This document shows, piece by piece, positions 3 through 19,200 of a DNA stretch of 20,000 nucleotides. Source of the DNA: an uncultured virus (IMG/VR IMGVR_UViG_2675903165_000002). Lineage: Duplodnaviria > Heunggongvirae > Uroviricota > Caudoviricetes. Position 1 is the first letter of the stretch. Each line of letters starts with the position of its first letter. The notes below the pieces were generated by a model that was not told where the DNA came from, did not search any database, and saw only the letters and a list, made by a program, of their open reading frames with translations. A program made the translations under genes and the position numbers. The DNA is taken from the IMG/VR virus record IMGVR_UViG_2675903165_000002; one strand, written 5' to 3'.

Positions 3-3000
3 TTGTATTTTGGCGATGAGCAAAGAACCAAAGATGAGTTTTTGAAGTGGTTTGTTCAAGACATAAGAGAAGCAAAATATTCCTCAGAAGTTGAAAAAGG
101 TATTTTAAAGTTTGTGAATGACCTCATTGATGGAAAAATTGAGGTGCGAGCGCATAATTCCAGTGCTATACACGCCAAATTTTATTTGTTTCTGCCAGAA
201 AATCATTCGGTACACTCTGACGGCTGGGTAATTATGGGGTCTTCCAACCTGACAGAAGCAGGGCTTGGAATAAAGAAATCGCCTAATTATGAGCTAAATA
301 TCGCGCTGAAAGACTACGATGACGTAGCGTTTACCAAACAAGAGTTCCTTACACTTTGGGAGCAATCTACTCCTATCTTACCCGCAGATATACACAGCTT
401 TAAACAAAAAACACACGTAGGACAAAAATTTTCGCCCTATGAACTGTACATAAAGTTTCTGATAGAATACTTTGATAAAAATATAGATTACGACCCCGAC
501 ACTGTAGGCGATTTGCCTCGAAATTACAAGAAATTATCGTATCAGGTTGATGCAGTAAATGAAGGTTTTCAGATGCTTATGGAGCATAACGGGTTTTTCT
601 TGTCCGACGTTGTGGGCTTAGGAAAAACCGTGATTGCTGCTATGATTGCCAAGCGATTTTTAATTGCCAACGGCTCACTAAATACCAAGATTCTTGTAGT
701 ATATCCACCAGCACTAGAAAAAAACTGGAAAAATACATTCGGCTTATTTAAACTTGACAAACATACCAAATTTATTACGAACGGAAGACTTGAAAAAATA
801 GCAGAAGGCAACGACATTAATTATTGGGCAAAGGAAGATTACGACTTAGTTTTGGTAGATGAAGCACATCGCTACCGAAATCATACCTCACAAGCATTTG
901 CTATGCTCCAAAGAATTTGTAAGGCTCCAAGAAACGGGGAAGGTCTTGTAACTGGCAATAAGAAAAAGGTAATTCTCATCTCAGCAACACCGCTCAATAA
1001 CAGACCGCAAGATTTATATTATCAATTGCTTTTATTCCAAGATGCAAGGCGCAGCACGTTGCCCATAACAAATTTACAAGGCTTTTTTGCCCCAATTATT
1101 CGGGAGTTTTGGAAAATTATGCAGCATGACAAACCTGATATTGAAAGAATACGAGAGTTGTATTCAGAAATACGCGAAAAGATAATTTCGCAGATTACCG
1201 TAAGGCGTACTCGCAAGCACCTAGAAAAGTACCCTAAATACATAGAGGACTTAACCGAGCAGGGAATTAAGTTTCCCGACATAGCTGCCCCTAAACCCAA
1301 AATTTATACCCTAGATGCCAAGTTAAGTAAGCTATTTTATCATACAATTTTTTACTTGACAGACGAAGATAAAATTCAGTTTTATAGATACCAAGCCATA
1401 CGGTTTTTATCCGATGAACAGTTGGAAATTTGTGGCTACACGCAAGCTGAAAGATTTTCAAAATCTTTGGCTGGTATTATAAAAACGCTTCTGATAAAAA
1501 GACTAGAAAGCAGCTTCACTGCGTTTAAGAAAACGCTTAATAATCTCCTCATCTCCACAGGGCGAATGATTGAGATGTTTGAAAATGATAAAGTGTTCAT
1601 TGCGCCAGACTTAGGAGTCAATGAATTACAGGACAAAGGTTTAACCGAAAGTCAAATTGAATCTATCATTTTAGACTACAGTATTATCAATCCCAAAAAC
1701 AATGTCTTTAATAAAAAAGATTTTGTTGAAAGGCAAATCAGTAAAAAAAATCCTGTATTTGTCGAGATTTTAGATGGCTTGAAAAAAGACTATGCCTTAT
1801 TGCAAGAATTAGTAAAGGCATGGAGCAAGGTAGATACTGACCCAAAACTTGACACTTTTCTTGCAACGTTAAAAGACGAACTACTTGATAAACAGATAAA
1901 CCCGACAGGAAAGCTGGTGATTTTTACCGAAAGTACCGACACTGCCAACTACCTGACAGAAAAGGTAGAAGCGTTTTTAGGGACTAAAATCTTGAATGTG
2001 TCGAGTAATAATCGGAACAAAATTTTTGAGATAATACTCGAAAATTTTGATGCCAATTATATTGGGGAGAGAAAAGACGACTACGACATTATCATCACTA
2101 CCGATGTGCTGGCCGAAGGTGTAAACCTACACCGCGCCAATGTGATTGTTAATTACGATACCCCTTGGAACGCCACAAGGCTCATGCAGCGTATTGGGCG
2201 AGTAAACAGAATTGGTAGTGTTGCGGGCGTTATCTACAATTACAATTTCTACCCATCGCAGCAAGGTGACGAGGAAATAAAATTGTATAGGAATGCGCTC
2301 GTAAAGTTGCAAGGTTTTCATACTGCCTTTGGCGAAGACGCACAAATTTATACGCACGAAGAATTGCTCGAACAATTTGAGTTATTTAAGGAAGGTTTGC
2401 CCGACGACGAAGACAAAAGGCTTTATTATTTGCGCGTTATCAGAGAGTTTAAAGACAAAAACCCAAAAGAATTTAAACGAATAAAGGCATTCCCGCTTAA
2501 AGCCAGAACAGCCCGAAAAGAAGAGTATGCACAAAAAAGTCAGGCACAACAATCTACTGTAGTATTCCTTAAATCGGTTTACAAAACAGAATTTTACCAA
2601 ATAAACGACAAAGCACAAGTAAAACCACTTACTTTTTTGGAGGCTGCACAAATTTTTGAAGCCAAGACCTCAGAGCCAGCTTTCGACCTGCCAGAAAGCC
2701 ACTATAAACACGTACAAGCCGCTTTACTCTCTTTTGAACAAGATTTTCTGAGTGCAAGCACAGAAAAAGTAACTTCTACCGACAAAGCTGATGCCAACAC
2801 CAAACAAGCACTCAAATTTTTGCGTGATTTTAAAGGCATTACACACCAAGCTACTGTAAAAGAAGTTTGTCAAACCTTGCAACCAATAGTAGAGGCTGGC
2901 ACTTATACGCCATTGGCTAACGAACTGAAAAAAATCAGTCAAAAATTGTTTAACAAACGAGAAATTACTACATCGCAGGCTGATAATTTGCTCATTGCTC

Positions 3001-3113
3001 TCGCTCAAAAATACGATGCACTCAACACCGACGAAGAAAATAATGCGCAAACAAGCATTGTAGAAGCCAATATTTCACCAGAAATTGTACTATCAGAAAC
3101 CTTTATTGATTAA
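3..3113 (+). CDS. PLD-nuclease / SNF2-like (SF2) helicase fusion, 5'-truncated by the window edge; probable restriction/motor subunit of the adjacent methyltransferase system
   Basis: N-terminal PLD-like motifs HAKFYLF...GSSNLT...NYE; helicase motifs LSDVVGLGKT (Walker A), LVDEAH (motif II), ISATP (III), LAEGVNL (V), QRIGRVNRIG (VI). Frame is open from the window start. Confidence 0.88.
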   Translation: MYFGDEQRTKDEFLKWFVQDIREAKYSSEVEKGILKFVNDLIDGKIEVRAHNSSAIHAKFYLFLPENHSVHSDGWVIMGSSNLTEAGLGIKKSPNYELNIALKDYDDVAFTKQEFLTLWEQSTPILPADIHSFKQKTHVGQKFSPYELYIKFLIEYFDKNIDYDPDTVGDLPRNYKKLSYQVDAVNEGFQMLMEHNGFFLSDVVGLGKTVIAAMIAKRFLIANGSLNTKILVVYPPALEKNWKNTFGLFKLDKHTKFITNGRLEKIAEGNDINYWAKEDYDLVLVDEAHRYRNHTSQAFAMLQRICKAPRNGEGLVTGNKKKVILISATPLNNRPQDLYYQLLLFQDARRSTLPITNLQGFFAPIIREFWKIMQHDKPDIERIRELYSEIREKIISQITVRRTRKHLEKYPKYIEDLTEQGIKFPDIAAPKPKIYTLDAKLSKLFYHTIFYLTDEDKIQFYRYQAIRFLSDEQLEICGYTQAERFSKSLAGIIKTLLIKRLESSFTAFKKTLNNLLISTGRMIEMFENDKVFIAPDLGVNELQDKGLTESQIESIILDYSIINPKNNVFNKKDFVERQISKKNPVFVEILDGLKKDYALLQELVKAWSKVDTDPKLDTFLATLKDELLDKQINPTGKLVIFTESTDTANYLTEKVEAFLGTKILNVSSNNRNKIFEIILENFDANYIGERKDDYDIIITTDVLAEGVNLHRANVIVNYDTPWNATRLMQRIGRVNRIGSVAGVIYNYNFYPSQQGDEEIKLYRNALVKLQGFHTAFGEDAQIYTHEELLEQFELFKEGLPDDEDKRLYYLRVIREFKDKNPKEFKRIKAFPLKARTARKEEYAQKSQAQQSTVVFLKSVYKTEFYQINDKAQVKPLTFLEAAQIFEAKTSEPAFDLPESHYKHVQAALLSFEQDFLSASTEKVTSTDKADANTKQALKFLRDFKGITHQATVKEVCQTLQPIVEAGTYTPLANELKKISQKLFNKREITTSQADNLLIALAQKYDALNTDEENNAQTSIVEANISPEIVLSETFID

Positions 3114-3116
3114 AAC

Positions 3117-4169
3117 ATGAATAAACTTAAAAGTGAGAATACTGAATTTAAGCAAGTTGTTCTACTGATAGAAGAAGCCAGAAACAGAGCTTTCCATAAA
3201 GTAAATGAAGAACTTATATTACTTTATTTCAGGGTAGGTAAACTGGTGTCCGAAAAAGTTTCTGCTGGAATATGGGGCGAAAATACAGTGGAAGCACTCG
3301 CAGGTTTTATTCAGGAAAAATGCCCAGAGTTGAGAGGATTCAACCGCAGGGGACTTTATAGAATGAAGCAATTTTATGAAGCATACACAGCACCTGAATT
3401 TGTGTCAACACTGATGACACATTTACAAAAATCTGAAAATGAAGCTATTAAAATTGTAAAAACACTACTAACTCAATTGCAATGGTCGGCACATCTCCTC
3501 CTTTTGAGCAAAACCAAAACACCCGATGAAAAGCTGTTTTACCTGCATTTGGCCATACAAGAAAAACTTTCTGTAAGGGAACTGGAGAGACAGCTCAACT
3601 CCGCAGTATTTGAAAGAACGGCACTTTCTAACCAACAATTGAAAACGACATTTACACAATTGCCTCAAAACTTTTTTAAAGACCCCTACATTTTCGAGTT
3701 TTTGGAACTGCCAGAAGGTCATTCAGAAAAAGACCTTGAAAAAGCACTCATAAGCAATCTGCAAAAATTTATTCTTGAAATAGGAAAAGGGTTTACCTAC
3801 ATGGGAAATCAATACCGATTACAAGTAGGCAATAAAGACTATTACACCGACTTACTTTTCTACCATCGCGATTTGCAATGCTTAGTATTATTTGAACTGA
3901 AAATTCAAGAGTTTGAACCCGAATTTTTGGGTAAACTGAACTTCTATTTAGAAGCATTAGACCGCGACGTAAAACGCCCTTTTGAAAATAATAGTATTGG
4001 TATTTTGCTTTGCAAAGGCAAAGAAACCGAAGTAGTTGAATATGCGATGGCTCGAAATACATCGCCTGCCATGATTGCCGATTACGAAACCAAACTAATA
4101 TCCAAAACCTTGTTGGCAAACAAGTTACATCAACTTGTGCTACAACTTTCTAATAAAGATATTGACTAA
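3117..4169 (+). CDS. yhcG: YhcG/DUF1016 family PD-(D/E)xK nuclease domain protein
   Basis: Family motifs WGENTVEALA, GFNRRGLYRMKQFY, LSVRELERQL, KDPYIFEFL, FILEIGKGF, YYTDLLFYHRDLQCLVLFELK, GKLNFYL, SIGILLC, VVEYAM. Stop TAA overlaps the ATG of the next gene at 4169. Confidence 0.88.
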   Translation: MNKLKSENTEFKQVVLLIEEARNRAFHKVNEELILLYFRVGKLVSEKVSAGIWGENTVEALAGFIQEKCPELRGFNRRGLYRMKQFYEAYTAPEFVSTLMTHLQKSENEAIKIVKTLLTQLQWSAHLLLLSKTKTPDEKLFYLHLAIQEKLSVRELERQLNSAVFERTALSNQQLKTTFTQLPQNFFKDPYIFEFLELPEGHSEKDLEKALISNLQKFILEIGKGFTYMGNQYRLQVGNKDYYTDLLFYHRDLQCLVLFELKIQEFEPEFLGKLNFYLEALDRDVKRPFENNSIGILLCKGKETEVVEYAMARNTSPAMIADYETKLISKTLLANKLHQLVLQLSNKDID

Positions 4170-7100
4170 TGGAAAAGAAAATACTTCAAAATATATTATC
4201 GAAGCCCTTTGTGCTTTCCGACTGGCTGACTTTATTGACAGATGTTTTCGGTGTAAAAAACTTTCTTCAAAACCCTGCTGAAATCCCTTTACCAAGCAAC
4301 AACAAAGCCGAAGCTGCTTTTGAGTTGGGTAGTTTCAGTACGGCTGACGATAGAATTATTGGGTTGTATTTGGTAAAGGTAAAACCCGAAGTTTGGTTGG
4401 AGCGCAACAAAGTGGGTTTAAGGGAATTACTACGTTCTGTTTACAAAAATGAGGTGGACGGTGCTTTAATTGTATTCGAGCAAGCTGATAAATGGCGTTT
4501 GAGTTTTGTAAGCGAAATTCGTACTTTGGACGAGTATGGGCAAATTGTTGAAAACCAAACGCAACCCAAACGATACACCTATCTTTTAGGCAGTGGTCAA
4601 AAAGTAAAAACCCCCACCGACAGACTATGTGCCATTGCAGGTAAAAAAGCAAAACTTGAGGATATTAGAAGTTTATTTTCTGTTTCAACGCTCACCAAAG
4701 AGTTTTACAACGAACTCTTTAAATGGTACGAATGGGCATTGTCGGAGGAAATAGGTATTACCTTTCCTAAAAATACAAGTACCGCAGACGACGACCGCGA
4801 AAAGTTGGAAGAACAAATTATTCGCCTCATTACTCGTTTGCTTTTTGTATGGTTCATCAAACAAAAACAGTTAGTGCCACACAATTTATTCGACAAAGAA
4901 CAACTAAAATCCATACTAAAAGACTTTAATCCAAACGACAACAATAACGGGAGCTATTACAATGCTATCTTGCAAAACCTGTTTTTTGCCACACTCAATA
5001 AATCCGTTACTGAACGTGCTTTTGCCAAAGACGAAAATAACAGAGATGTAAAAACATTGTATCGCTATGCAGAAATGTTTGATATTGAAGAAGCGGAAGT
5101 TTTAAATCTATTCTGCAAAATTCCTTTTTTGAATGGCGGTTTATTTGAATGTTTGGACAAAGAAGCATCAACCGACGGCGTAAAATATCATTTAGACGGC
5201 TTTAGTCGAAACGATAGGAAAGTAAGAGGGCAATTCAGCCACCGTGCATACATTCCCAACTGCGTTTTCTTCGACGAAAACAAGGGCATTATTCCACTAT
5301 TGGAACGCTACAATTTTACCGTAGAAGAAAATGCGCCCGAAGATGTGCAAGTGGCTCTTGACCCCGAACTCTTGGGTAATGTATTTGAAAACCTTTTGGG
5401 TGCATACAACAGCGAAACCAAAGAATCTGCCCGTAAGCAAAGCGGAAGTTTTTACACACCCCGCGAGATTGTGGATTTTATGGTAAGCGAAAGTTTGCAG
5501 ACCTATTTGAACGAAAAAATTGGCGATGTTGATTTGAACGGACAACTGACCGATGAACAAAAAAAGAAAATTTACAATACCTTACTCAAAGTAAAAATCC
5601 TTGACCCAGCCTGCGGTTCTGGTGCTTTTCCAATGGGAATTTTGAACGGCATCATTGCCTTGCTCGAAAAAATTGGCGTGGCACAACACTTGGATATGTA
5701 CCAGCTAAAACTACACCTGATTGAAAACTGTATTTATGGTGTGGATTTACAAACCATAGCGGCACAAATAAGCAAATTGCGTTTCTTTATTTCGCTTATT
5801 GTGGAACAAGGGGAAATGGATTTGAGCAAAGAAAATTACGGTGTCATTACTTTACCTAACTTGGAAACCAAATTTGTAGCGGCAAACACCTTACTTGGGC
5901 TGCCTAAAAGGCAAGCTCAGATTGATTTGTTTGAAGACCCAGCCATAGAAACAACTAAACAGGAAATTTTTGCAGTGCGCCACGAACATTTTTACGCCAG
6001 AACAGCCAAAGAAAAGCGGCAACTACGCGATAAAGACGAAAAATTGCGTAAGAAGTTAGTGCAGTTGTTAGAAAACAACCATTCACTTAACCATGAAGAT
6101 GCAAAAAAAATAGCTGAATGGAATCCTTATGACCAAAACTCAAGTTCTGATTTTTTTGATGTAGAATGGATGTTTCTTTTAAAGGATGGCTTTGACATTG
6201 TAATTGGAAATCCACCTTATTTTTCACTATCAACAGATAGCATCTACTTAGATGATAAAACAGGGAAAAGGATAAAACACAACAGAATTTATGAACCTCA
6301 GGGCTTCAAAGTTTTTTCTAATTCTGGCGACATCTATTCTCTCTTTTATGAAAAAGGTTGGCAAGTGATAAAAGAAAAAGGCCACTTGTGTTTTATTACT
6401 TCCAACAAATGGATGCGGGCAGGCTATGGCGAAAGTACACGAAAGTTTTTTGCTGAAAATACCAACCCCGTATTACTGATTGATTTTGCAGGGCAAAAAA
6501 TATTTGAAAGTGCCACAGTTGATGTAAATATTTTACTGTTTAGCAAAAGTAAAAATCAACAAAAGACACTTGCTTGCATTGTTAAAGAAAAGGTGTTAAA
6601 TAATTTGAGCGTTTTTGTTAGACAACAAGGCTCAGAATGTGGTTTTTTAGGAAAAGAAAGCTGGACAATTCTTAGCCCAATTGAGCAAAGTATTAAACAA
6701 AAAATAGAAGCTGTTGGCACACCCCTCAAAGATTGGGATATAAATATTTATCGTGGAATTTTGACGGGCTACAACGAAGCATTTATAATTGACGGAAGCA
6801 CTAAAGACAAACTGGTAAAAGAAGACCCAAAATCTATCGAAATTATAAGACCGATTTTACGTGGGCGCGATATTAAGCGTTACGGCTATGAGTATGCAGA
6901 CCTTTACCTGATTGCTACTTTTCCAAGCCTTAAAATTGATATAGAACAGTATCCTGCCGTAAAAAAGCATCTGCTTTCGTTTGGAATGGAACGTTTAGAG
7001 CAAACAGGAAAAGAGTACAAAGTAAATGGCGAAACTATAAAAGCTCGCAAAAAAACCAACAATAAATGGTTTGAAACGCAAGATAGCATAAGTTATTGGG

Positions 7101-7507
7101 ACGATTTTAATAGGCAGAAAATCGTGTGGAAACGTGTTGGTTCAATTTTGCGATTTTCATACGATGAAGCGGGAACAATGGCTTTGGATAGTACTTGTTT
7201 TGCAACGGGAAAATATATCAAGTTTTTGGTTGGTGTTCTCAACTCTAAAATGGGACATTATTTGATGAAAGATGCGCCACAAACAGGAACAGGAGATTTA
7301 TTGATAAGCGTCCAAGCTATTGAGCCACTCAAGATTCCTATTCCTGATACAAATACAGAGCAGTCCATTAGTAAACTAATAGAAGAAATCTTGCATAATA
7401 AAAAACATGGATTAAGTTCGTATGAGTTAGAGCATAGACTTGATAATGTAGTATACGCTTTATATAACCTTGAAAAAACAGAGATTGATTTTGTTAATAT
7501 TCTGTAA
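4169..7507 (+). CDS. Type IIG/Eco57I-like N6-adenine DNA methyltransferase with TaqI-like C-terminal target recognition domain (currently expressed allele)
   Basis: FLNGGLF, LDPELLGNVFENLL, GSFYTPREIV, SAM-binding ILDPACGSGAF, catalytic IVIGNPPY, FITSNKW, C-terminal TRD-type segments (RGILTGYNEAF, ILRGRDIKRY, VLNS). Confidence 0.9.
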   Translation: MEKKILQNILSKPFVLSDWLTLLTDVFGVKNFLQNPAEIPLPSNNKAEAAFELGSFSTADDRIIGLYLVKVKPEVWLERNKVGLRELLRSVYKNEVDGALIVFEQADKWRLSFVSEIRTLDEYGQIVENQTQPKRYTYLLGSGQKVKTPTDRLCAIAGKKAKLEDIRSLFSVSTLTKEFYNELFKWYEWALSEEIGITFPKNTSTADDDREKLEEQIIRLITRLLFVWFIKQKQLVPHNLFDKEQLKSILKDFNPNDNNNGSYYNAILQNLFFATLNKSVTERAFAKDENNRDVKTLYRYAEMFDIEEAEVLNLFCKIPFLNGGLFECLDKEASTDGVKYHLDGFSRNDRKVRGQFSHRAYIPNCVFFDENKGIIPLLERYNFTVEENAPEDVQVALDPELLGNVFENLLGAYNSETKESARKQSGSFYTPREIVDFMVSESLQTYLNEKIGDVDLNGQLTDEQKKKIYNTLLKVKILDPACGSGAFPMGILNGIIALLEKIGVAQHLDMYQLKLHLIENCIYGVDLQTIAAQISKLRFFISLIVEQGEMDLSKENYGVITLPNLETKFVAANTLLGLPKRQAQIDLFEDPAIETTKQEIFAVRHEHFYARTAKEKRQLRDKDEKLRKKLVQLLENNHSLNHEDAKKIAEWNPYDQNSSSDFFDVEWMFLLKDGFDIVIGNPPYFSLSTDSIYLDDKTGKRIKHNRIYEPQGFKVFSNSGDIYSLFYEKGWQVIKEKGHLCFITSNKWMRAGYGESTRKFFAENTNPVLLIDFAGQKIFESATVDVNILLFSKSKNQQKTLACIVKEKVLNNLSVFVRQQGSECGFLGKESWTILSPIEQSIKQKIEAVGTPLKDWDINIYRGILTGYNEAFIIDGSTKDKLVKEDPKSIEIIRPILRGRDIKRYGYEYADLYLIATFPSLKIDIEQYPAVKKHLLSFGMERLEQTGKEYKVNGETIKARKKTNNKWFETQDSISYWDDFNRQKIVWKRVGSILRFSYDEAGTMALDSTCFATGKYIKFLVGVLNSKMGHYLMKDAPQTGTGDLLISVQAIEPLKIPIPDTNTEQSISKLIEEILHNKKHGLSSYELEHRLDNVVYALYNLEKTEIDFVNIL
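6607..6625 (+). repeat. Left 19-bp inverted repeat (putative invertase crossover site) inside the MTase coding sequence
   Basis: GAGCGTTTTTGTTAGACAA at 6607-6625 is the exact reverse complement of 9271-9289; flanking bases mismatch on both sides. Confidence 0.88.
6839..7122 (+). repeat. Left copy of perfect 284-bp inverted repeat in the middle of the TRD
   Basis: Base-by-base comparison shows 6839-7122 is the reverse complement of 8774-9057; encodes EIIRPILRGRDIKRY...WDDFNRQKI. Confidence 0.93.
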
Positions 7508-7742
7508 TTCTGCTCAATATGTTTTTTATAGAGTTTTCAATCTCATCTATTTCTTCGTTGGTAAAAAGCATCATTTCATAAACCCATTTATTTACATAAA
7601 AAGCATCTATTTTTTTAGACAAAATGTTTTGGGTTTCTTTTAATCTTTTTTCATTAGGTAATGGCAATGGAATATTTTGAAAATAGTCGGTAAAAATTTT
7701 AAATCCTGTTTCATCAAAGGAATAAATGTAATATCGAAATAA

Positions 7743-8604
7743 GAGTATGTTTAAAAATTAAGTATTGTGATTATCTAAAACGATTGAGTATAATTTGGAT
7801 ATTAGTCCACAAAATCCAGTTTTGGGAACTTTTCGCTGTTTTTTCATAATCTTTAGCAAGCCTACGAAAGAAATTATGCCAAGCAAAAGTTCTTTCCACT
7901 GCCCACCGCCACTTGACGGGAACAAATCCTTTCCTGCTGGGCGGTACAGCACTACACTCTACTGCTAAACCAAGTATATTAGCTTCTACCCATTGCATAA
8001 ATCCTTTTTTGTAGGCCGCATCCACCAGTATTTTTTGCATCCTATCTAAATAACCCAAACAGTGTTCTACCAGTAAATGAGCCTTTTGACTGTCATGGCT
8101 GTCTGCTCCATGAACAACCACCCCCCAAACTAAACCAAGCGTATCTACTATCACGTGTCTTTTTCGACCATTGATACACTTATTCCCATCAACACCTTTG
8201 TCTTTACTGACAAAAGGAGATACTTTTATAGATTGACTATCAATACTGAATAAACTCGGGATAGCCTTTTTCCCTTGCCGTTGGCGTTCGAGTTTATTCA
8301 GTTCGCTATTGATTCTTTCTAAGGTGCCATCTTTGCCCCATTTGGCAAAATAATAGTAAACCAATGGCCATGGGGGATAACAAGTTTCCAAATTACGCCA
8401 TTGCGTCCCTTTCCGAAGAATGCTCAAAATACCATTGACAACCGCACGCAAAGAATATTTGCGCTTTCTTTGCTGATTCAATATTTTACTGATAATTTCC
8501 CACGCGGTATCGGATAAATCTTTAAAACAGGTTTGCATTTTACTTTCATGTTTGGTCACTAAAAGTAAATTATCCGATACCCTTTTTTAAATTTAAACAT
8601 ACTC
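7743..8604 (-). mobile_element. IS5 family, IS1031-group insertion sequence (862 bp)
   Basis: 13-bp terminal inverted repeats GAGTATGTTTAAA (7743-7755) / TTTAAACATACTC (8592-8604), 3-bp TAA target duplication (7740-7742 and 8605-8607), single transposase ORF. GAG ends and TWA duplication match the IS1031 group. Confidence 0.92.
7771..8559 (-). CDS. IS5-family DDE transposase (start may be the ATG at 8538)
   Basis: DLSDTAW, GTQWRNL, VYYYFAKW, IDSQSIK, GRKRHVIVDTLG, LVDAAY, RWAVERTFAW, RRLAKDYE. Confidence 0.93.
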   Translation of the reverse strand: MTKHESKMQTCFKDLSDTAWEIISKILNQQRKRKYSLRAVVNGILSILRKGTQWRNLETCYPPWPLVYYYFAKWGKDGTLERINSELNKLERQRQGKKAIPSLFSIDSQSIKVSPFVSKDKGVDGNKCINGRKRHVIVDTLGLVWGVVVHGADSHDSQKAHLLVEHCLGYLDRMQKILVDAAYKKGFMQWVEANILGLAVECSAVPPSRKGFVPVKWRWAVERTFAWHNFFRRLAKDYEKTAKSSQNWILWTNIQIILNRFR

Positions 8605-8773
8605 TAAATACCCCAAAAGGGTAGAGTTTAAAAGTAACCAAAGATATTCTAAATCTTTACCAACTAAAAAATAGCAATCATTGCCAAAGAAAAAGTTCTT
8701 ATCGTTATCTAATGCAAAACGGGGGAAATTATTTTCGTTGCTTTTAGCAATTCTCATAATTCCTGGATAGATA

Positions 8774-9057
8774 ATTTTCTGCCTATTAAAATCGTCCCAA
8801 TAACTTATGCTATCTTGCGTTTCAAACCATTTATTGTTGGTTTTTTTGCGAGCTTTTATAGTTTCGCCATTTACTTTGTACTCTTTTCCTGTTTGCTCTA
8901 AACGTTCCATTCCAAACGAAAGCAGATGCTTTTTTACGGCAGGATACTGTTCTATATCAATTTTAAGGCTTGGAAAAGTAGCAATCAGGTAAAGGTCTGC
9001 ATACTCATAGCCGTAACGCTTAATATCGCGCCCACGTAAAATCGGTCTTATAATTTC
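8774..9057 (-). repeat. Right copy of perfect 284-bp inverted repeat (in silent TRD cassette)
   Basis: Reverse complement of 6839-7122; also explains the identical shadow ORFs 6904-7089 and 8807-8992. Confidence 0.93.
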
Positions 9058-9270
9058 TTCACTTTTGGGGTCTTGCGCAATGAGTTCTTTTCGCTTTGAG
9101 CCATCAATGATGAAAGCCTCATTAAAACCTGTTTTTATTCCATAATTGATTTGAATATCCCAGTCCTTTAACGGTGTTCCTATTCTCTCAATTTTTTCTT
9201 TTATGCGTTGTTCAATGTCAGAAAGAATAACCCAGCTATCGGCATTATTGAAACTACCCAGATTTCCTGC

Positions 9271-9289
9271 TTGTCTAACAAAAACGCTC
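9271..9289 (-). repeat. Right 19-bp inverted repeat (putative invertase crossover site) marking the start of the silent TRD cassette
   Basis: TTGTCTAACAAAAACGCTC; similarity to the MTase stops immediately outside it; lies about 100 bp upstream of the serine recombinase. Confidence 0.88.
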
Positions 9290-9386
9290 TTTTAGTTGTA
9301 TAAAATAATTGTCTAAGTTTTTTCTATACAATTTTGGTTTAAATTAAGCAGTTGAATGTAATATTAAGTTAAACAAGAAAAACATT

Positions 9387-9983
9387 ATGATTTACGGTTA
9401 CATTCGGGTAAGCACCGACAAACAAACAGTAGAAAACCAACGCTACGAAATCAATCAATTTTGCCAAAACAATGTATATGTAGTAGATAAATGGATTGAA
9501 GAAACCATTTCGGGAGCTAAAAATCTACAAGACCGAAAACTTGGCAAACTTTTAAAACGAATGAAAAAGGGCGACATTCTTATCTGCTCCGAGCTTTCAC
9601 GTTTGGGCAGAAATTTGTTAATGATTATGGGCATACTTAACGAATGTATGAACCGCGACATTCAGGTTTGGACGATAAAGGATAATTATCGTTTGGGTAG
9701 CGACATCAACTCAAAAGTATTGGCCTTTGCCTTTGGTCTTTCAGCAGAAATAGAGCGCAACTTAATTTCGCAAAGAACAAAAGAAGCCTTGGCGCGAAAA
9801 AAAGCGGAAGGCGTAATTCTTGGCCGTCCCAAAGGACGAAAATCATCGAAAACCAAACTTACAGGACAGGAAAAAAAGATAAAGGACTTATTGGATAAAA
9901 AAGTTTCTTATTCAGCCATCGGCAGGATATTGGGTGTACACAGGCTTACGGTCAGTAGTTTTGTGAAAGCACAAACAGAATAG
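9387..9983 (+). CDS. mpi: Small serine recombinase/DNA invertase, Mpi-like family
   Basis: MIYGYIRVSTDKQTVENQR (catalytic Ser), ELSRLGRNL, WTIKDNYRLG..INSKVLAFAFGLSAEIERNLISQRTKEALARKKAEGVILGRPKG, C-terminal HTH; recognised as close to Bacteroides Mpi-type invertases. Confidence 0.85.
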   Translation: MIYGYIRVSTDKQTVENQRYEINQFCQNNVYVVDKWIEETISGAKNLQDRKLGKLLKRMKKGDILICSELSRLGRNLLMIMGILNECMNRDIQVWTIKDNYRLGSDINSKVLAFAFGLSAEIERNLISQRTKEALARKKAEGVILGRPKGRKSSKTKLTGQEKKIKDLLDKKVSYSAIGRILGVHRLTVSSFVKAQTE

Positions 9984-10090: not shown

Positions 10091-10121
10091 ACCGCCAGCG
10101 CAACCCGTTGGCGGTTTTTTT
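10091..10121 (+). terminator. Intrinsic terminator downstream of the invertase
   Basis: Stem ACCGCCAGCG / CGTTGGCGGT (one G-U), loop CAACC, followed by a T run. Confidence 0.75.
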
Positions 10122-10160: not shown

Positions 10161-11399
10161 TTACAATCCTAACAACCTGTTACTCATTTCTTTTCGGGTA
10201 TCGTCCTCAAAACTGGCCAAATAGACTTCTGTGATGGTGGTATTGGTATGTCCCAAACTTTCACTAATGTATTCTATGCTTGCCCCTGACCGCTTCAATA
10301 CTGTTGAGAAACTATGCCGCGCCGTGTAGGTAGTAATATGCTTACTGATACCTAATTCTTGCCCAACCTGCTTCATAAATCTATTGATGGTGGAGACGAT
10401 ATTGTGGGTTTTAACTGCCCTCTTCAATGGTGATTGTTGGTCATTATAAAAAGGAAAAATATAAGTATTGGGTAAGCAGGGTTTCTGTCCCCAACGGGCA
10501 ATAATATCTTGGGCAATGGCTGGCAAATGAGCCTGAATTAAGCGTGGGTTGCTACGGAGCTTATTAGCTGTTTTTTGTCTCATAAAGGTTAGCCTATCGC
10601 CATCTATATTGCTATATTTGAGGTTGCATATATCTTTTACGTTTATCCCATTGCACAGATAAGAAAAGACCCACAAGTCTCGGGCTAAAGCCTCTTTTCC
10701 TTGTGGGTCTTGTGGGGTGTAATGTATAATTTTCATAATATCAGCGAAGGGCAAGGCTTTTTTGATATTGACGGATGTTAAGGGTTGGTATTTTTTTCTT
10801 CCAAAGGGGTAGAAATCTTTTGAAACAATACCGTCTGCCATGGCAGCATTAAAGACGGTACGAATAGAGGTTGTATAAAATCCAATAGACCCCGCTTTGA
10901 GTCCTTTTATGAGTAGAGCCTCTTCGTATTTTTTCAAGAAGGCGGGAGTGATGTCCTCAAAATATAGATTTGTGCCAGCGTATTGCCGCAGGGAGTTGAG
11001 AGCGCAAGCAAATCCCCATGCAGATTTAATACGGCCTTCAGCAAATAGATTATCAATAAAAGATTGGAAGTAGTTTATGACCTTACGCGATACGACAGCA
11101 TTGTTACTTTTTCCATTGTATAGTTCCGTGAATCGCCTAAAAGTAAATACTCCCATAGACTTAAGTATGAGTTGTGCTTTATGCTCTATGGCCGTTATTT
11201 TAATTTTGAGCTCTTTAAGTTGTCCGCCGCGCACGGAGGTGGTTTTGAGCTTGTCCCAATCAGCTACTGAAACATATTCTGCAATGCTGATATATTGTCT
11301 TTCTTTTCGATAAGTAATGCGTAATTTAAGAGGGAAAGTTCCATCGACTTTTTGCCTTCTTCTGTCGATAACGACGGCAATTGTTGCAGTGTTTTCCAT
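10161..11399 (-). CDS. Tyrosine site-specific integrase (N-terminal arm-binding domain, SAM-like core-binding domain, catalytic domain)
   Basis: N-terminal DGTFPLKLRITY..ERQYI arm-domain pattern; catalytic region FSYLCNGINVKDI, FMRQKT, TYTARHSFST, ISESLGHT, TEVYL. No IntI-type insertion recognised. Confidence 0.9.
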   Translation of the reverse strand: MENTATIAVVIDRRRQKVDGTFPLKLRITYRKERQYISIAEYVSVADWDKLKTTSVRGGQLKELKIKITAIEHKAQLILKSMGVFTFRRFTELYNGKSNNAVVSRKVINYFQSFIDNLFAEGRIKSAWGFACALNSLRQYAGTNLYFEDITPAFLKKYEEALLIKGLKAGSIGFYTTSIRTVFNAAMADGIVSKDFYPFGRKKYQPLTSVNIKKALPFADIMKIIHYTPQDPQGKEALARDLWVFSYLCNGINVKDICNLKYSNIDGDRLTFMRQKTANKLRSNPRLIQAHLPAIAQDIIARWGQKPCLPNTYIFPFYNDQQSPLKRAVKTHNIVSTINRFMKQVGQELGISKHITTYTARHSFSTVLKRSGASIEYISESLGHTNTTITEVYLASFEDDTRKEMSNRLLGL

Positions 11400-12003: not shown

Positions 12004-12741
12004 ATGTCAGATAACAAAGAAAATAAAGCTAACTGGAAGCCCACAGATAAAAGATTTGTAGCATTTTTAGATATATTGGGTTTTAAAGACTTGGTTATGA
12101 GAAATACCCATGATGAAATATATCAAATATTAAATCAAATATCAAAAAGCAAAAAATTAATAGAAGAAGCCACAAAGTTTGAAGAAATTTCAAAGGTATT
12201 TGGTGATGTTGAAGTTTATGTAGTAAGCTTTTCAGATTCTATTGTAATCTTTTCAAAAAACGATAGTATTGAAAATTTCAAATATTTTCTATTAGCGACT
12301 AGGTGGTTTTTTACAGGTGCATTTAATAAACAAATACCTATAAAAGGAGCAATGGCACACGGTGAAATTAGTTTGAATAAGAAGGAACAGATTTATTTTG
12401 GGCAACCAATAATTGATGCTTATTTAATGGAAGAAGATGTGAATTATATGGGCATTGTCGCTCATAATAGTATTGACAATTATATTTCAAAAATTGAAGA
12501 AGAATCAGTTCTAAAGAGTATTGAGAGATTGTTGTTTGAAGAAAAAACTCCACTAAAATGTGGTAGCTTGACTCATACAAATCTCAATTGGTTCAAGATA
12601 ATTAAGAAAACCGATGAAGAGTTTAATATTCAGTATTTAAAATCTAAGATTAATTTATTCAAAAAAACGACATCTGGTACTGCAAGAAAATATATTGATA
12701 ATACTTTTAATATCTTAGAAAAAATAGAGGGTAGTTTATAA
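12004..12741 (+). CDS. Class III nucleotide cyclase-like protein (cassette 1)
   Basis: FVAFLDILGFK (first Asp), SFSDSIVI (second Asp), IKGAMAHGEI, YFGQPIIDAYLME follow the adenylate/guanylate cyclase motif order; product unknown. Confidence 0.6.
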   Translation: MSDNKENKANWKPTDKRFVAFLDILGFKDLVMRNTHDEIYQILNQISKSKKLIEEATKFEEISKVFGDVEVYVVSFSDSIVIFSKNDSIENFKYFLLATRWFFTGAFNKQIPIKGAMAHGEISLNKKEQIYFGQPIIDAYLMEEDVNYMGIVAHNSIDNYISKIEEESVLKSIERLLFEEKTPLKCGSLTHTNLNWFKIIKKTDEEFNIQYLKSKINLFKKTTSGTARKYIDNTFNILEKIEGSL

Positions 12742-12742
12742 A

Positions 12743-12869
12743 TTAACTATGCACAACACACAATATAGCCAATAAGGGTTTCAGTGGTATGCGAAGGTTT
12801 GTAGCCCCCTTCAATTTTTCGTGTACCATGATAGGAAATCGCCCGCAATCCCTTACTGGCCAGTTAGCA
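12743..12869. repeat. attC-like site 1 (shortened right arm)
   Basis: TTAACTATGCACAAC (12743-12757) complements the cassette 1 start GTTGTGCATAATTAA (11978-11992); inner stem GCCAATAAGGG (12768-12778) / CCCTTACTGGC (12850-12860); next GTT at 12863. Confidence 0.75.
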
Positions 12870-12895
12870 GCAAGCTTAAAAAAACAAAGCAATCT

Positions 12896-13786
12896 ATGAG
12901 AATTTTTATTAGTTGGTCAGGAGACGTAAGTAAGCAAATAGGAGAAGCCATTAAAGATTGGCTACCCGCTGTGTTACAAAATGTCAAACCCTATTTTACT
13001 CCAAATGATATTGAAAAAGGAGCACGCTGGAATGCAGATATTTCAAAAGAATTAGAGCATTGTAAGTTAGGAATATTTATATATACAAAGGATAATATTG
13101 ACAGCCAATGGATGTTGTTTGAAGCAGGTGCAATTAGTAAAATGTTGGACAATTCAAAAGTTTGTCCCATTTTGTTTGGGCTAGACAATGCTGATTTTAA
13201 AGGACCACTTACACAATTTCAAACGTCACAATTTCAAAAGACAGATTTTAGAAAATTAGTTTACTCAATCAATAATAGTCTTTCTGAACAAAAACTAGAG
13301 GAAAAAGTATTAGATGAAGTTTTTGAAATGTGGTGGCCAAAACTTGAAAATAAGGTTAATAAACTTTTAGATGCTAATAAGGTAGAAAACATTGCTGTTA
13401 GAAATGACCGAGAACTTCTTGAAGAAATACTTGCGATTTCTAGAATTACAGCAAAACGTACAATAGAAACAGGTAAGTCAAACTCAAAAAGAAGATATAA
13501 TACAGAAGTTTATGAAAAACTTGTGTCGAGCTTTATTTTTGGAACAGAAACTATTTTTGAAATAGATTGGGAACATACCAAGTCTTGTTTAGAAGGTGAT
13601 AATCTTCAATACTTCGTTGCACAAAATGGGGACTTTTTAAATCCTAATGTAAATGATGAAGGAAATAACTGGGCTAATAGGGTTGGGTTTTTAGAATCTT
13701 ATCGAAAACTTAAGTCATTCATCGAAGAATATGGATTAAGAAAAAGAGATTCATATTTTGACCCTGAAAACGAACCTCCATTTTAA
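12896..13786 (+). CDS. TIR-domain protein (cassette 2), 296 aa
   Basis: MRIFISWSG...WLPAVLQ...DIEKGARW...WMLFEAGAISK with the conserved TIR Glu. Start placed at ATG 12896, inside the cassette, rather than 12821, which lies in the attC-like site. Confidence 0.85.
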   Translation: MRIFISWSGDVSKQIGEAIKDWLPAVLQNVKPYFTPNDIEKGARWNADISKELEHCKLGIFIYTKDNIDSQWMLFEAGAISKMLDNSKVCPILFGLDNADFKGPLTQFQTSQFQKTDFRKLVYSINNSLSEQKLEEKVLDEVFEMWWPKLENKVNKLLDANKVENIAVRNDRELLEEILAISRITAKRTIETGKSNSKRRYNTEVYEKLVSSFIFGTETIFEIDWEHTKSCLEGDNLQYFVAQNGDFLNPNVNDEGNNWANRVGFLESYRKLKSFIEEYGLRKRDSYFDPENEPPF

Positions 13787-16218: not shown

Positions 16219-19200
16219 ATGGCCTCTACCACTCAAGCACAATCACAGATTACCGTTATCACTGATGCCAAACAAAGCATCAATGAGTTAGGACGGCTGC
16301 AACTCAAAGCCGCCGATTTTGCCAAAGAAATCAAAGACTCCAAAAAGAGCTTTGATGAGTTCAATCGCTCCAGTACAGCCCTTTCCCGCATGGGCGAAGG
16401 CATCAAACGCCTTAGCATAGAAGCCGCTCAATTCAAGCAGGCAATGACCGCCAACAAAACGGCTGCCGAGCAATTCAGCAAGTCCACTGCTGATTTGGGC
16501 AAAGTAAACACCGAGCTAAAAAACCTCAAAAGCCAAGCCGCCGAACTCCGTACCGCCATCAAAGGTATGAAAGAAGGCACGGAGGAATACGCACGCGAAA
16601 ACGACAAGCTCACGGCCATCAAAACCAAAATAGAGTCCCTGAAGACTTCGGCCACGGCACTCAAAGCCCAAATGCTTGAGTCGAAAAATGCGGCCAAAGA
16701 CTTTGATAAAGCCAATGCAGGATTAGACAAAACGAATGCCACTTTAACCAAACTCACGGCCAAAGCCGATGACTTGGCAGCCGCTACGCTTCGAGCCAAA
16801 GCCGAAGCCGACAAATACAGTGCCGCCAAAGAAGGCTTTAAAGCCGTCAATGCTGAAATAGACAAGGAGCGCGAAAAATTGGGCGTGCTGGGCATGACCA
16901 TGAACCAAATGCTCAAGTACCAGAAGGATTTGAACGCGGCCATCAATACAGGAGCAGTCTATGGAACAGAACGCTACCAACAACTAAACACGAAACTTGT
17001 AGAGGTTAATGGCGCGATTCAGCAGCAGAAAAATGACCAAAAACGCTTGCAACAGGAAACAGGTCTTACTGTTGGTTCATTGCGAGAACTGGAAGAACAA
17101 GAAAAGCGATTAAACGCTGAGATTAAGAATTTAGGCATCAATACGAAAGAATTTGCGGCCAAAGCCCGCGAGCTTCGCACCGTAGAAAGCCAAATCAGTT
17201 CGGCAGAAAATAAACTCAAAGGTTTTGCGGGTTCGTGGGCAAACATGAAAAACAGCATCATGAATGTGGCGGGTGGTGTTATTGGTGGTACGCTGGCCTT
17301 GTCTGCTTTTCAGAAGTTGGCCGAGTTTATCCCCAACCTCATTTCTTCACAAGCCAAACTCTCGGACAGTTTCGCCGACATTCGCAAAACTACGAACATG
17401 AGCATTGAGGGCGTGAAGGAGTATAACAAACAACTTTCCCAACTCAATACCCGCACGGCCACCGAAGAGCTACGCAAAATTTCCATTATCGCAGGTCAGT
17501 TGGGCATAGACCAAACAAAGGTGTTTGATTTTACGGCTGCCGTTGATAAAATGGTCGTGGCTCTTGGTGATGAATTTACAGGCGGTGCGGAACAAATCAC
17601 CAAAGAAATGGGTGCGTTGCGCAACATCTTTTCCGACATCAAAACAGATAAAATTGATGAGGATATGTTACGCATCGGCAACGCCATCAATCAATTGGGT
17701 AGCGAAGGCGCAGCGACAGGGCCAGTAATGGCGGACTTCGCTTCGCGTATCGGTGGCGTTGGGGTTCAATTAGGATTGAGTTCTGGGCAAATATTGGGGC
17801 TTTCGGCCACCCTTCAGGAGTTGAACGTAAACGCCGAGCGTGGCGGTACGGCCATCGTTAAAATTTTACAACGCATGGCCTCGACACCAGAGGAGTTTGC
17901 CAAAGTTGCCCAAATGTCCGCCAAGTCCTTTACCGAACTCGTGGACAATGACATTTACGGAGCTTTGACCAGAGTCATTGAAAAGGCCAATGAATCAGGG
18001 GCAAGTGCTACGGTTTTAGCTTCTATCCTCAAAGAACTGGACGTGGACGGAGCAGGCGCAAGTGAGGTGTTTGCCAAACTTGGCGGAAATATGGATACGT
18101 TGGCCAAGAAAGTGGCCAGTTCCAACAGCGCGTTGAAAAGTACCGATTCCATCATGAACGAGTTTGGCATCAAAAACGAAAACTTTGCAGCCAAACTCGA
18201 AAAGTTGAGCAAGGCCATCAGCAAAATGTTCACGTTCCCAACGCTCAATAAAGCCATTGAAGATACCGTCGGTTGGCTGTATAAGTTACTGCCCGCCACC
18301 GAAAAATTTAGTGCTTCTCTCGAAAAAGAAGCCTACAATTTGGATAGTGCAACCATTGGCATCATGAGCCTCAAGGTAGGCACGGAAGAGCGCACCAGAG
18401 CCATCAAGGAATTGCAAGACAAATACCCCGACTATTTGGGTAATCTCAACGCCGAAACCGTCTCTAATGCCGAGCTGAAAAAATCCATTGACAACGTAAC
18501 CAATTCGCTCATTGAGCAAATTATTATCAAAAAGGCAATGGAAAAAGTGGACGAGCAAGCCAACAAAGCAGCAGAAGCCTACGCCAATTTGATGGAAAAA
18601 CGCAGAGTGGTACAAGACCGTCTCAATGATTATTTCAATCAAGAAAAAGGCAATACCGAAAAACACAATCAGTTACAATCTATTAAAAATCAGCTCATGG
18701 CTTCGGGAATGAGCTTGGAAAAACAATACGAGTTCATTCAGAGCGGACGTGTAAAAGAATTGCCGCGTTGGGGCGATGCTTATCATGAATTGGCTGGTTC
18801 TGTCATGTATTTGCGAATAGCCGAACAAGACTACAACAAGGAAGCAGAAAAAACACTTCAGTTTGAAAAAGAACGAACTGAAGTATATAAATCACTTGGC
18901 CGTAATGCCAATGGTGAAACCCCCGCCGAGATTGCCGCCCGCAAAAAAGCGGAAGAAGATGCCAAAAGGAAAGAAGAGGAGGACAAGTTAAAAGCCGCAG
19001 CCGCCCGTAAAAAAGCCCGTGAGGAGGCCGAGAAAAAAGAGCGTGATGACAACGCCAAAAAGAACAAGGCCGAAGCCGAAAAACGCGCCAAAGAAGCGTT
19101 GGAGGCAGAGCGTAAAATCATTGATTTACGTCTTAACCTGCTCAAAGATGAGCGCGAGCGCAAACGAGCCATTGCCACAGAGGAAAATCGCCGAGAAATC

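Follow-up and report, generated by a model that had tools for sequence, protein, structure and literature searches.

Can a DNA methyltransferase that carries its recognition domain on the same polypeptide chain rewrite that domain by inverting part of its own gene, and does such an inversion deliver a second specificity or a defective enzyme? The question is raised by a stretch of 20,000 nucleotides from an uncultured virus of the Caudoviricetes (IMG/VR record IMGVR_UViG_2675903165_000002; nucleotides 51139-71138 of contig C10 in genome G000), which is referred to here as the window and to which all positions relate unless a contig or locus is named. It holds a gene for an N6-adenine methyltransferase (MTase) that ends in a target recognition domain (TRD), a second and silent TRD lying inverted downstream, and, next to the latter, a gene for a serine invertase of the Mpi family (Table 1). 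We consider it about 85% probable that these genes belong to a mobile restriction-type module in which the invertase inverts the TRD at a repeat embedded in the MTase gene (site 1), in which the last TRD module (V2) is probably exchanged at an inner site (site 2) or at the conserved block ending there (block C), and in which the silent version of that module (V2b) is split by an insertion sequence (IS).

Expressed and silent recognition domains

The expressed TRD comprises the C-terminal 299 residues of the MTase (1112 minus 813) and is built from the variable module V1a, block C, and the variable module V2a. The NPPY motif (N681, P682, P683, Y684) is invariant in the family alignment (A1), and the protein combines this gamma-class adenine MTase with a C-terminal TRD, as is typical of Type IIG enzymes. 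The best Type IIG model in PADLOC (REase_MTase_IIG, 8.5e-148) is confined to residues 468-1109, and across the MTase-TRD part the family profile matches structures of adenine MTases (7lni/8cxz at 9.3e-27, BseCI, BrxX, and TaqI). Read downward from position 9291 on the minus strand, a frame without a start codon repeats the layout of the TRD, beginning with the residues SVFVRQ and continuing with a diverged V1, an identical C, and a diverged V2. This silent TRD is found in two pieces, one of 228 residues (9288 to 8605) and one of 81 residues (7739 to 7497).

Both TRDs are bounded by an inverted repeat whose outermost 19 bp (6607-6625 and 9271-9289) are perfect and form the longest exact word common to both arms; taken over 24 nt (6607-6630 and 9266-9289) the arms are 92% identical. 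The 19-bp repeat is not a product of chance, because it forms the outward end of a longer inverted repeat, of 516 nt and 83% identity (6607-7122 versus 8774-9289, BLAST E value of 3.5e-149). Within the latter, an inner repeat of 301 nt (6822-7122 and 8774-9074) reaches 98% identity, and 284 nt thereof are identical. Inversion in silico keeps the reading frame and reads ...VLNNLSVFVRQAGNLGSF... at site 1. The sequence-only reading of the window, made before this analysis, had described a perfect 19-bp inverted repeat in frame within the MTase and at the head of a start-less inverted C-terminus, which is borne out. Across 58 expressed and 31 silent copies in related loci, the homology of the arms starts at one and the same point and codon, and the serine codon AGC is almost invariant, hence site 1 is conserved at the DNA level.

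Evidence for inversion of the segment

Sequencing data were compared from the source run (X1) and from three other runs (X2 to X4). The freshwater metagenome X2, which stems from another study than the source, contains a 457-nt contig that joins positions 6443-6606 on the plus strand to 9289-8997 on the minus strand. Each of the two aligned pieces carries three letters other than those of the window, and 19 letters fit either side of the joint between 6606 and 9289. Such a joint, at which the silent V1 follows on the MTase, is what inversion predicts, and it occurs here in a near-identical relative. In the run X3, C-V2a is present at low depth and arranged as in the reference, and neither X3 nor X4 bears on inversion.

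The source run X1 was seen as contigs built from 31-letter words, where successive contigs overlap by 30 letters. These contigs break at 6625, 6596/6636, and 6607 and again at 9289, 9260/9300, and 9271. As the arms share a word of at most 19 letters, which is too short to branch a graph of 31-letter words, the breaks require recombinant reads. Two more X1 records align in part and leave 11-letter loose ends at 9271 and 9289 that equal the reverse complements of 6626-6636 and 6596-6606, as inverted junctions would read. The contigs covering the reference junctions have depths of 164.1 and 149.1 compared with 183.3-193.2 in their neighbors, and the bin 9216-9349 has a depth of 286.2 compared with 261.3 summed over the three contigs listed for it; in the corresponding left bin, three contigs account for the whole depth of 264.2. 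These values suggest that an inverted minority was present in the source culture, very roughly a fifth (13-29%, depending on the measure).

Opposite orientations were also found between two related loci (L denotes related loci and stretches used for comparison). In L040 and L048 the cassette pair lies in opposite orientation, the inverted comparison giving 97% identity over 245 nt and 91.5% over 294 nt between collinear flanks that are 88-93% identical. An interpretation of this pair as a swap of V1 only was rejected, as a finer comparison shows that the whole pair is inverted and V2 diverged; it is thus evidence for inversion at site 1 only. The two loci, labeled Sphingobacterium lumbrici (L040) and metagenome-assembled genome (MAG) of a Flavobacterium sp. 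(L048), are about 90% identical over more than 6 kb despite labels from different families, a combination that suggests either that the entire module was transferred horizontally or that an error occurred in binning.

The insertion sequence and the predicted product of inversion

The IS in the silent cassette is 862 bp long, ends in inverted repeats of 13 nt (GAGTATGTTTAAA), is flanked by TAA duplications (7740-7742 and 8605-8607), and contains an uninterrupted open reading frame (ORF) for a DDE-type transposase (7771-8559), a combination of transposase type, terminal repeats, and short target duplication that agrees with the IS5 family. It occurs once in the genome and is contiguous in an X1 contig covering 7093-8803 at a depth of 189.9. 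In a Kaistella locus (L029) the silent cassette is uninterrupted, and the counterparts of its two pieces, with identities of 78% and 53%, adjoin directly (9236/9235), therefore the IS in the window is a secondary insertion. The wastewater run X4 holds only relatives of the IS, which are about 92% identical, stand in another context, and depart from the window at 8605-8607. The transposase gene runs in the same direction as the silent cassette, and inversion would place the IS downstream of the MTase gene in the direction of that gene.

When the inversion at the 19-bp repeat is performed in silico with the IS in place, the in-frame fusion stops at 1044 amino acids inside the end of the IS (...LLGYLEYV, followed by the stop codon), and the 309-residue alternative TRD (228 plus 81 residues) arises only with the IS removed. 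It had been claimed that inversion would swap 299 C-terminal residues for a different TRD of 309 residues. The figure of 299 is correct, but the alternative is split in two by the IS. Because V2b is split, inversion of the whole TRD in this strain would be expected to yield a truncated enzyme and not a second specificity, and this enzyme is probably inactive. The locus would thereby provide a natural case in which an IS turns part of a specificity switch into an OFF state.

A probable second exchange site and the proposed mechanism

At the inner edge of block C lies site 2. In 21 related loci, a short repeat island occupies this codon position, some 460-590 nt inward of site 1; it usually measures 22-35 nt, with an identity of up to 100% against diverged surroundings, and its family form (GGAGGATTTTTCTAAGCAGAAAAT) encodes W-E/D-D-F-x-K-Q/P-K. 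Among 44 matches to silent cassettes, 31 begin at site 1 and five at TRD residues 161-166, which is the position of site 2; the latter cassettes, in L017, L025, L032, L058, and L063, contain V2 only. The X2 relative is near-identical to the window as far as site 2 and unlike it right past 7129 and 8772. Four of the matches (in L030, L039, L042, and L086, all on the minus strand) start instead at TRD residues 81-86, where the conserved block begins; part of the family may have a third exchange point there, or the alignment may have been truncated. In a Porphyromonadaceae MAG (L032, 8964-9751) about 790 nt interrupt the match to the expressed TRD exactly at the position of site 2, and this interruption could be another cassette or an insertion.

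The module would accordingly be made up of a PLD-SNF2 nuclease-helicase, a DUF1016 nuclease, and the 1112-residue MTase with its C-terminal 299 residues as the presumed DNA-recognition domain, followed by a second TRD that is start-less, inverted, and presumably promoter-less. Recombination by the invertase between site 1 (codons 813-819) and its copy at 9271-9289 would exchange the whole TRD, while site 2 (7099-7122 and 8774-8797), or the 284-nt block ending there, would probably let the last module swap alone. The invertase may act at site 2 itself; the 284-nt identity would equally permit general recombination. Four alleles would be expected (V1a-V2a, V1b-V2b, V1a-V2b, and V1b-V2a), of which two would be truncated by the IS here (1044 amino acids). 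In this strain the switch would thus alternate between the intact enzyme and a probably dead one, with a chimeric specificity as a possible third state, and a second intact specificity would need a further exchange at the inner site; methylation and restriction would presumably change with the state. The idea of phase-variable specificity in a single-chain MTase-TRD, put forward in the sequence-only reading, retains its invertible TRD, its adjacent invertase, and now the X2 junction, but has to be amended for the swapped enzyme, which the IS truncates, and for the two nested exchange points.

A more far-reaching proposal, to which we give somewhat less than even odds, is that one Mpi-type invertase reads two codon-embedded sites throughout the family (AGCGWTTTYGT... 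at site 1 and GGAGGATTTTTCTAAGCAGAAAAT about 165 codons on at site 2) and thereby shuffles the sub-modules of the TRD independently, with three states in this strain: specificity A, a chimeric specificity, and OFF. If true, this would be a single-polypeptide counterpart of the TRD1/TRD2 shuffling in Type I HsdS. It would also imply, from a truncated state that persists at a sizeable share of the culture, that the PLD-SNF2 nuclease is harmless to the DNA of its own cell without the MTase-TRD.

The invertase

The invertase gene starts 97 bp outside the right repeat arm. Its product is full length, matches Pfam Resolvase (PF00239, 4.7e-35) and HTH_38, and carries the N-terminal serine motif YIRVSTDKQ; the earlier description of a serine invertase of the Mpi family immediately outside the segment agrees with its score on the NCBIfam family model (347.8 bits, cutoff 272). 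The enzyme is the sole homologue in the genome, and words resembling site 1 occur only at the two arms, apart from one weak match on contig C19. Like Mpi of Bacteroides fragilis, it belongs to NCBIfam family NF009949, matched over the full length. Mpi has 13 dispersed regions as its inversion targets, including seven polysaccharide promoters (PMC4747536), whereas a single local and putative target within a coding sequence is found here. The many dispersed targets that go with a master role are thus lacking for this Mpi-family enzyme, a difference that concerns its role and not its family, and judged by its sequence context it looks like a dedicated local enzyme and not a master regulator. In the sequence-only reading, the right site had been likened to the Mpi core ARACGTWCGT at 8 of 10 positions. 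The motif AAACGCTCTT is indeed present at 9282-9291, but matches of this quality occur at chance level in the window (38 found compared with 45.7 expected from shuffles), and the left site is not among them.

Relatives of the locus

A search of genome contigs gave 587 confirmed relatives, from which 75 loci were kept; 35 of these have a full expressed TRD, and 24 of the 35 extend at least 2000 bp downstream. A silent inverted TRD is present in all 24, and an Mpi-like invertase in 22 of them (L013 and L033 have none within the flank). A PLD-SNF2 gene lies upstream of the MTase gene in 63 of the 75 loci and a DUF1016 gene in nine. The relatives include contigs labeled as Bacteroidota, Spirochaetes, Clostridia, and Planctomycetaceae, and the loci labeled Bacteroides (L023 and L066) are 53-56% identical by best segment.

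Among the public contigs of the family (L013-L087), 21 of 75 stop before the TRD is complete, 12 of them inside it. Such ends fit inverted repeats or mixed orientations that break short-read assemblies, and many database copies of the gene would then be truncated. The position of the sites at fixed codons may explain these ends and, as it holds across many genera, could serve as a detector for such switches.

Comparison with known systems

In Type II restriction-modification (R-M) enzymes with homology to Cj0031, long reads have confirmed programmed inversions (Milman et al., Nucleic Acids Res 2023; PMC9881135). In the passages of that paper considered here, the gene immediately upstream encodes either a PLD+SNF helicase (Bacteroides ovatus, CP083813.1:5322008-5329826) or a DUF1016 protein (CP033760.1:4018068-4024437), annotations of Mpi-family invertase, DUF1016, and Eco57I are enriched at inversion targets, and homologues are reported from three phyla; a consensus for the recombination sites does not appear there. 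A preprint from 2025 reports inverted repeats in MTases with neighboring invertases across gut bacteria (PMC11741434). By this published description, the window shares with the class a PLD-SNF2 helicase, a DUF1016 protein, and an Eco57I-type MTase in like order, with repeats that overlap the 3' part of the MTase gene; an Eco57I MTase with a TaqI_C-type TRD, PLD+SNF2 and DUF1016 neighbors, repeats, a partial inverted copy, and a nearby recombinase are all present. It differs from the loci described there in having the helicase and DUF1016 genes together and a silent cassette split by an IS. The locus is hence a new member of a class published in 2023, set apart by its IS-split cassette, by having both a helicase and a DUF1016 gene, and by data suggesting that a minority orientation is live. 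The view that specificity shufflons are best known for Type I hsdS, from which the sequence-only reading started, is out of date given these Type II inversions. As inversion of the TRD in a Cj0031/Eco57I-type MTase with a PLD-SNF2 partner has been in print since 2023, the locus opens no new question; it is a worked example with evidence of a live switch in a sequenced culture.

Type I hsdS invertons, as far as the cited descriptions of the Streptococcus pneumoniae SpnD39III/cod locus and the phase-variable Type I system of B. fragilis (PMC7641763) go, likewise have start-less inverse silent cassettes, repeats within the gene, a neighboring recombinase, and exchange of half modules. There, a separate HsdS subunit carries two TRDs, whereas here the variable part is the C-terminus of the MTase chain and the partner is PLD-SNF2 and not HsdR. 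The inverting PglX of the type 1 bacteriophage exclusion (BREX) system of Lactobacillus rhamnosus (NC_013198.1), as described in PMC9881135, is likewise a large adenine MTase of the gamma class, in which inversion beside a recombinase rewrites the recognition part, and the family profile of the MTase in the window matches the BrxX structure 9ewz at 3.5e-14; that PglX keeps a constant C-terminus, whereas here the C-terminus itself varies. Assignment of the window to BREX type 1 was rejected, as the PglX model of NCBIfam scores 71.7 bits against a cutoff of 500 and no BrxC or PglZ genes are found in the window or the 11 kb upstream. Class 1 DISARM (defense island system associated with restriction-modification) was rejected as well: DrmD scores 126.5 bits against a cutoff of 610, DrmMI matches at just 9.2e-23 over a short stretch, and no DUF1998 or DrmA-type gene is found in the same region. 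Cj0031 of Campylobacter jejuni, a Type IIG enzyme (Anjum et al. 2016, cited in PMC9881135), is a phase-variable single-chain MTase-TRD of the Eco57I type as well, but according to PMC9881135 it is turned on and off through a polyG tract, with no inversion of a cassette.

The N-terminal part of the methyltransferase

Ahead of residue 399 of the MTase, no sequence match to Pfam or the PDB was found. A predicted model of residues 1-424 has a pLDDT (predicted local distance difference test) of 71.8, and a Foldseek search with it gave nothing at E ≤ 0.001. In VIA-align, residues 172-424 of the model weakly resemble the helical N-domains of HsdM, MmeI, and PglX (Z 5.0-6.9), and residues 1-172 weakly resemble the nuclease domains of DrdV (Z 4.5), BpuSI (Z 3.9), and FokI (Z 3.8), all of which lie below the tool's caution level. 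Within the N-terminal 170 residues, the columns that are invariant across the family alignment do not include a conserved D...(D/E)xK triad. DNA cleavage may perhaps be supplied by the PLD-SNF2 partner.

Alternative explanations

Several observations weigh against the module as we describe it. No recombinant contig is found among the X1 records listed, and inversion in the source culture is read from breaks, loose ends, and depths; both loose ends could derive from one reference contig placed at the other arm, and the two depth deficits differ (13% and 21%), with the bin excess giving 22-29%. No single molecule shows the two orientations coexisting in that culture, and the inverted junction is direct only in X2. 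Eight of the 44 silent-cassette matches do not start at either site, and for four of these the start falls at residues 81-86; compared by eye, sites 1 and 2 of the window agree in 8 of 18 letters, a weak similarity; and the 284-nt identical block exceeds the 31-letter word, so that the contigs are blind to exchange at site 2. A metagenome scan with the silent cassette returned 620 stretches, of which 604 are relatives with 74-76% identity at best, and among these 620 there is no near-identical second copy, no evidence on orientation, and no IS-free twin. The search of relatives for the opposite orientation, which had been suggested as a check, succeeded with the X2 junction and the pair L040/L048 but not with closer kin: a DNA search of 61 related genomes found no homologous locus in the 19 of the same family, hence a comparison of orientation among close kin is impossible, and the weak matches in the other genomes are conserved MTase or IS pieces.

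One alternative is a fossil switch, in which repeats and silent cassette would be mere remnants in a strain whose segment has ceased to invert; in its favor, the assembly holds a single orientation, the X1 records give no recombinant contig, and the IS already present in the silent cassette could mean relaxed selection. We regard such a fossil as highly improbable, since the X1 contigs break at a 19-bp repeat that a graph of 31-letter words should read through, the contigs across the junctions fall short in depth, both arms retain the 19-mer without a mismatch, and the invertase is complete, keeps the catalytic serine motif, and scores above the family cutoff. That general homologous recombination across the 284-516-nt repeat inverts the segment, with the invertase irrelevant, seems about as improbable: the X2 joint and the X1 breaks fall at the 19-bp site, where the flanking identity is poor, 31 right sites taken from many genera all have the outer boundary of the repeat at one and the same codon, the invertase is present in 22 of 24 loci, and the second repeat measures just 22-35 nt in many relatives, even though 284 nt of perfect identity would be ample for a RecA-type exchange with the same product as exchange at site 2.

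A further reading accepts inversion and limits it to site 1, so that this strain would switch between the intact MTase and the inactive one truncated by the IS and would never gain a second specificity. The fused ORF that ends at 1044 amino acids inside the IS, the fixation of the IS in the culture as seen in its contiguous contig, and the fact that site 1 junctions are the only ones visible in any data all speak for such an ON/OFF switch; the site 2 islands, the V2-only cassettes of relatives, and the 284-nt block make an exchange of V2 plausible, which would give an intact V1b-V2a chimera, and a pure ON/OFF switch is therefore possible but rather unlikely. It is less likely still, though not negligible, that the MTase serves mainly as an epigenetic regulator (phasevarion) and not as the recognition subunit of a restriction or defense complex. 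Phase-variable MTases are known as regulators, for example in the reference on Cj0031 cited in PMC9881135, and the lack of a conserved triad in the N-terminal 170 residues would fit such a role. A PLD-SNF2 nuclease-helicase gene directly upstream in 63 of 75 loci, and the DUF1016 nuclease, the TIR-TM defense gene, and the mobile-element genes around the locus, argue instead for the restriction-type module.

Genomic setting

The features of the locus are collected in Table 1. The helicase gene has its 5' end 294 nt ahead of the window, the complete gene (G000:C10:50844-54251) encoding 1135 amino acids, and the DUF1016 gene sits between it and the MTase gene, so that both neighbors lie upstream of the MTase gene and in the same direction.

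Table 1. Features of the invertible methyltransferase locus and its direct neighbors
Feature	Position	Strand	Basis
PLD (HKD) nuclease and SNF2 helicase gene	3-3113	+	Pfam PLDc_2, SNF2-rel_dom, Helicase_C, ResIII; PADLOC 'HKD+Snf2' 1.1e-44
DUF1016/YhcG PD-(D/E)xK-type nuclease gene	3117-4169	+	Pfam YhcG_C 1.5e-57, DUF1016_N 3.5e-33; PADLOC PDC-S02 6.8e-120
N6-adenine MTase, 1112 amino acids, C-terminal TRD; expressed allele V1a-C-V2a	4169-7507	+	Pfam Eco57I 1.5e-35, N6_Mtase 1.5e-13, TaqI_C 1e-08, MmeI_Mtase
Site 1, left copy; 19-bp perfect repeat inside codons L813-Q819	6607-6625	+	Family consensus TTG followed by AGCGWTTTYGTKMRRCA, 58 left sites
Variable module V1a of the expressed TRD	6626-6838	+	Diverged from V1b inside the 516-nt, 83% repeat
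Conserved block C	6839-7122	+	284 nt identical to 8774-9057; single 284-nt X1 contig, depth 385.2 (double)
Site 2, left copy; codons W-D-D-F-N-R-Q-K, inner edge of block C	7099-7122	+	Short repeat island at the same codon position in 21 related loci, family form GGAGGATTTTTCTAAGCAGAAAAT
Variable module V2a, last 128 residues of the expressed TRD	7123-7507	+	Scant similarity to V2b
Silent cassette, last part: final 81 residues of V2b and stop	7494-7739	-	Overlaps the end of the expressed gene by 14 nt, tail to tail
IS5-family IS, 862 bp	7743-8604	-	NCBIfam IS5 NF033580 168.5 bits (cutoff 110); Pfam DUF4096 and DDE_Tnp_1
Silent cassette, first part: V1b (9270 to 9058), block C (9057 to 8774), V2b start (8773 to 8605)	8605-9270	-	Start-less frame of 229 amino acids, TaqI_C 3.5e-06
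Site 2, right copy	8774-8797	-	Repeat comparison; X2 contigs turn unlike the window at 7129 and 8772
Site 1, right copy; head of the silent cassette	9271-9289	-	Homology begins (G)AGCG among 31 right sites
Mpi-family serine invertase, 198 amino acids	9387-9983	+	NCBIfam NF009949 1.9e-104, 347.8 bits (cutoff 272), residues 1-196 on profile positions 1-196 of 203
Terminator-like hairpin and T run, 3' of the invertase gene	10091-10115	+	Consensus match only: 2 found compared with 2.0 expected

Judged from the surrounding genes, the R-M switch looks like cargo carried by an integrative mobile element, with genes for an ATPase, an ArdC protein, and an RNase H protein upstream of it and an integrase gene and a tape-measure-like gene downstream. 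The 11 kb upstream of the window (L088, G000:C10:40000-51138) encode a coupling-protein-like ATPase, an ArdC anti-restriction/metallopeptidase protein, and an RNase H protein; a relaxase-like match in the same stretch is weak and lies below the Pfam cutoff. Downstream of the module, a tyrosine integrase of Bacteroidota type is encoded at 10161-11399 on the minus strand. An ORF at 16219-19998 on the plus strand, which runs off the contig end after at least 1260 codons, contains a phage minor-tail/tape-measure domain (1.5e-15) and suggests a region of a prophage or tail-like particle beside the element. Close to the R-M module lies a gene for a TIR-domain protein (12821-13786; PADLOC TIR-TM, 5.9e-75), which is preceded by an uncharacterized ORF (12004-12741), and this TIR-TM gene and the R-M module together look like a small defense island.

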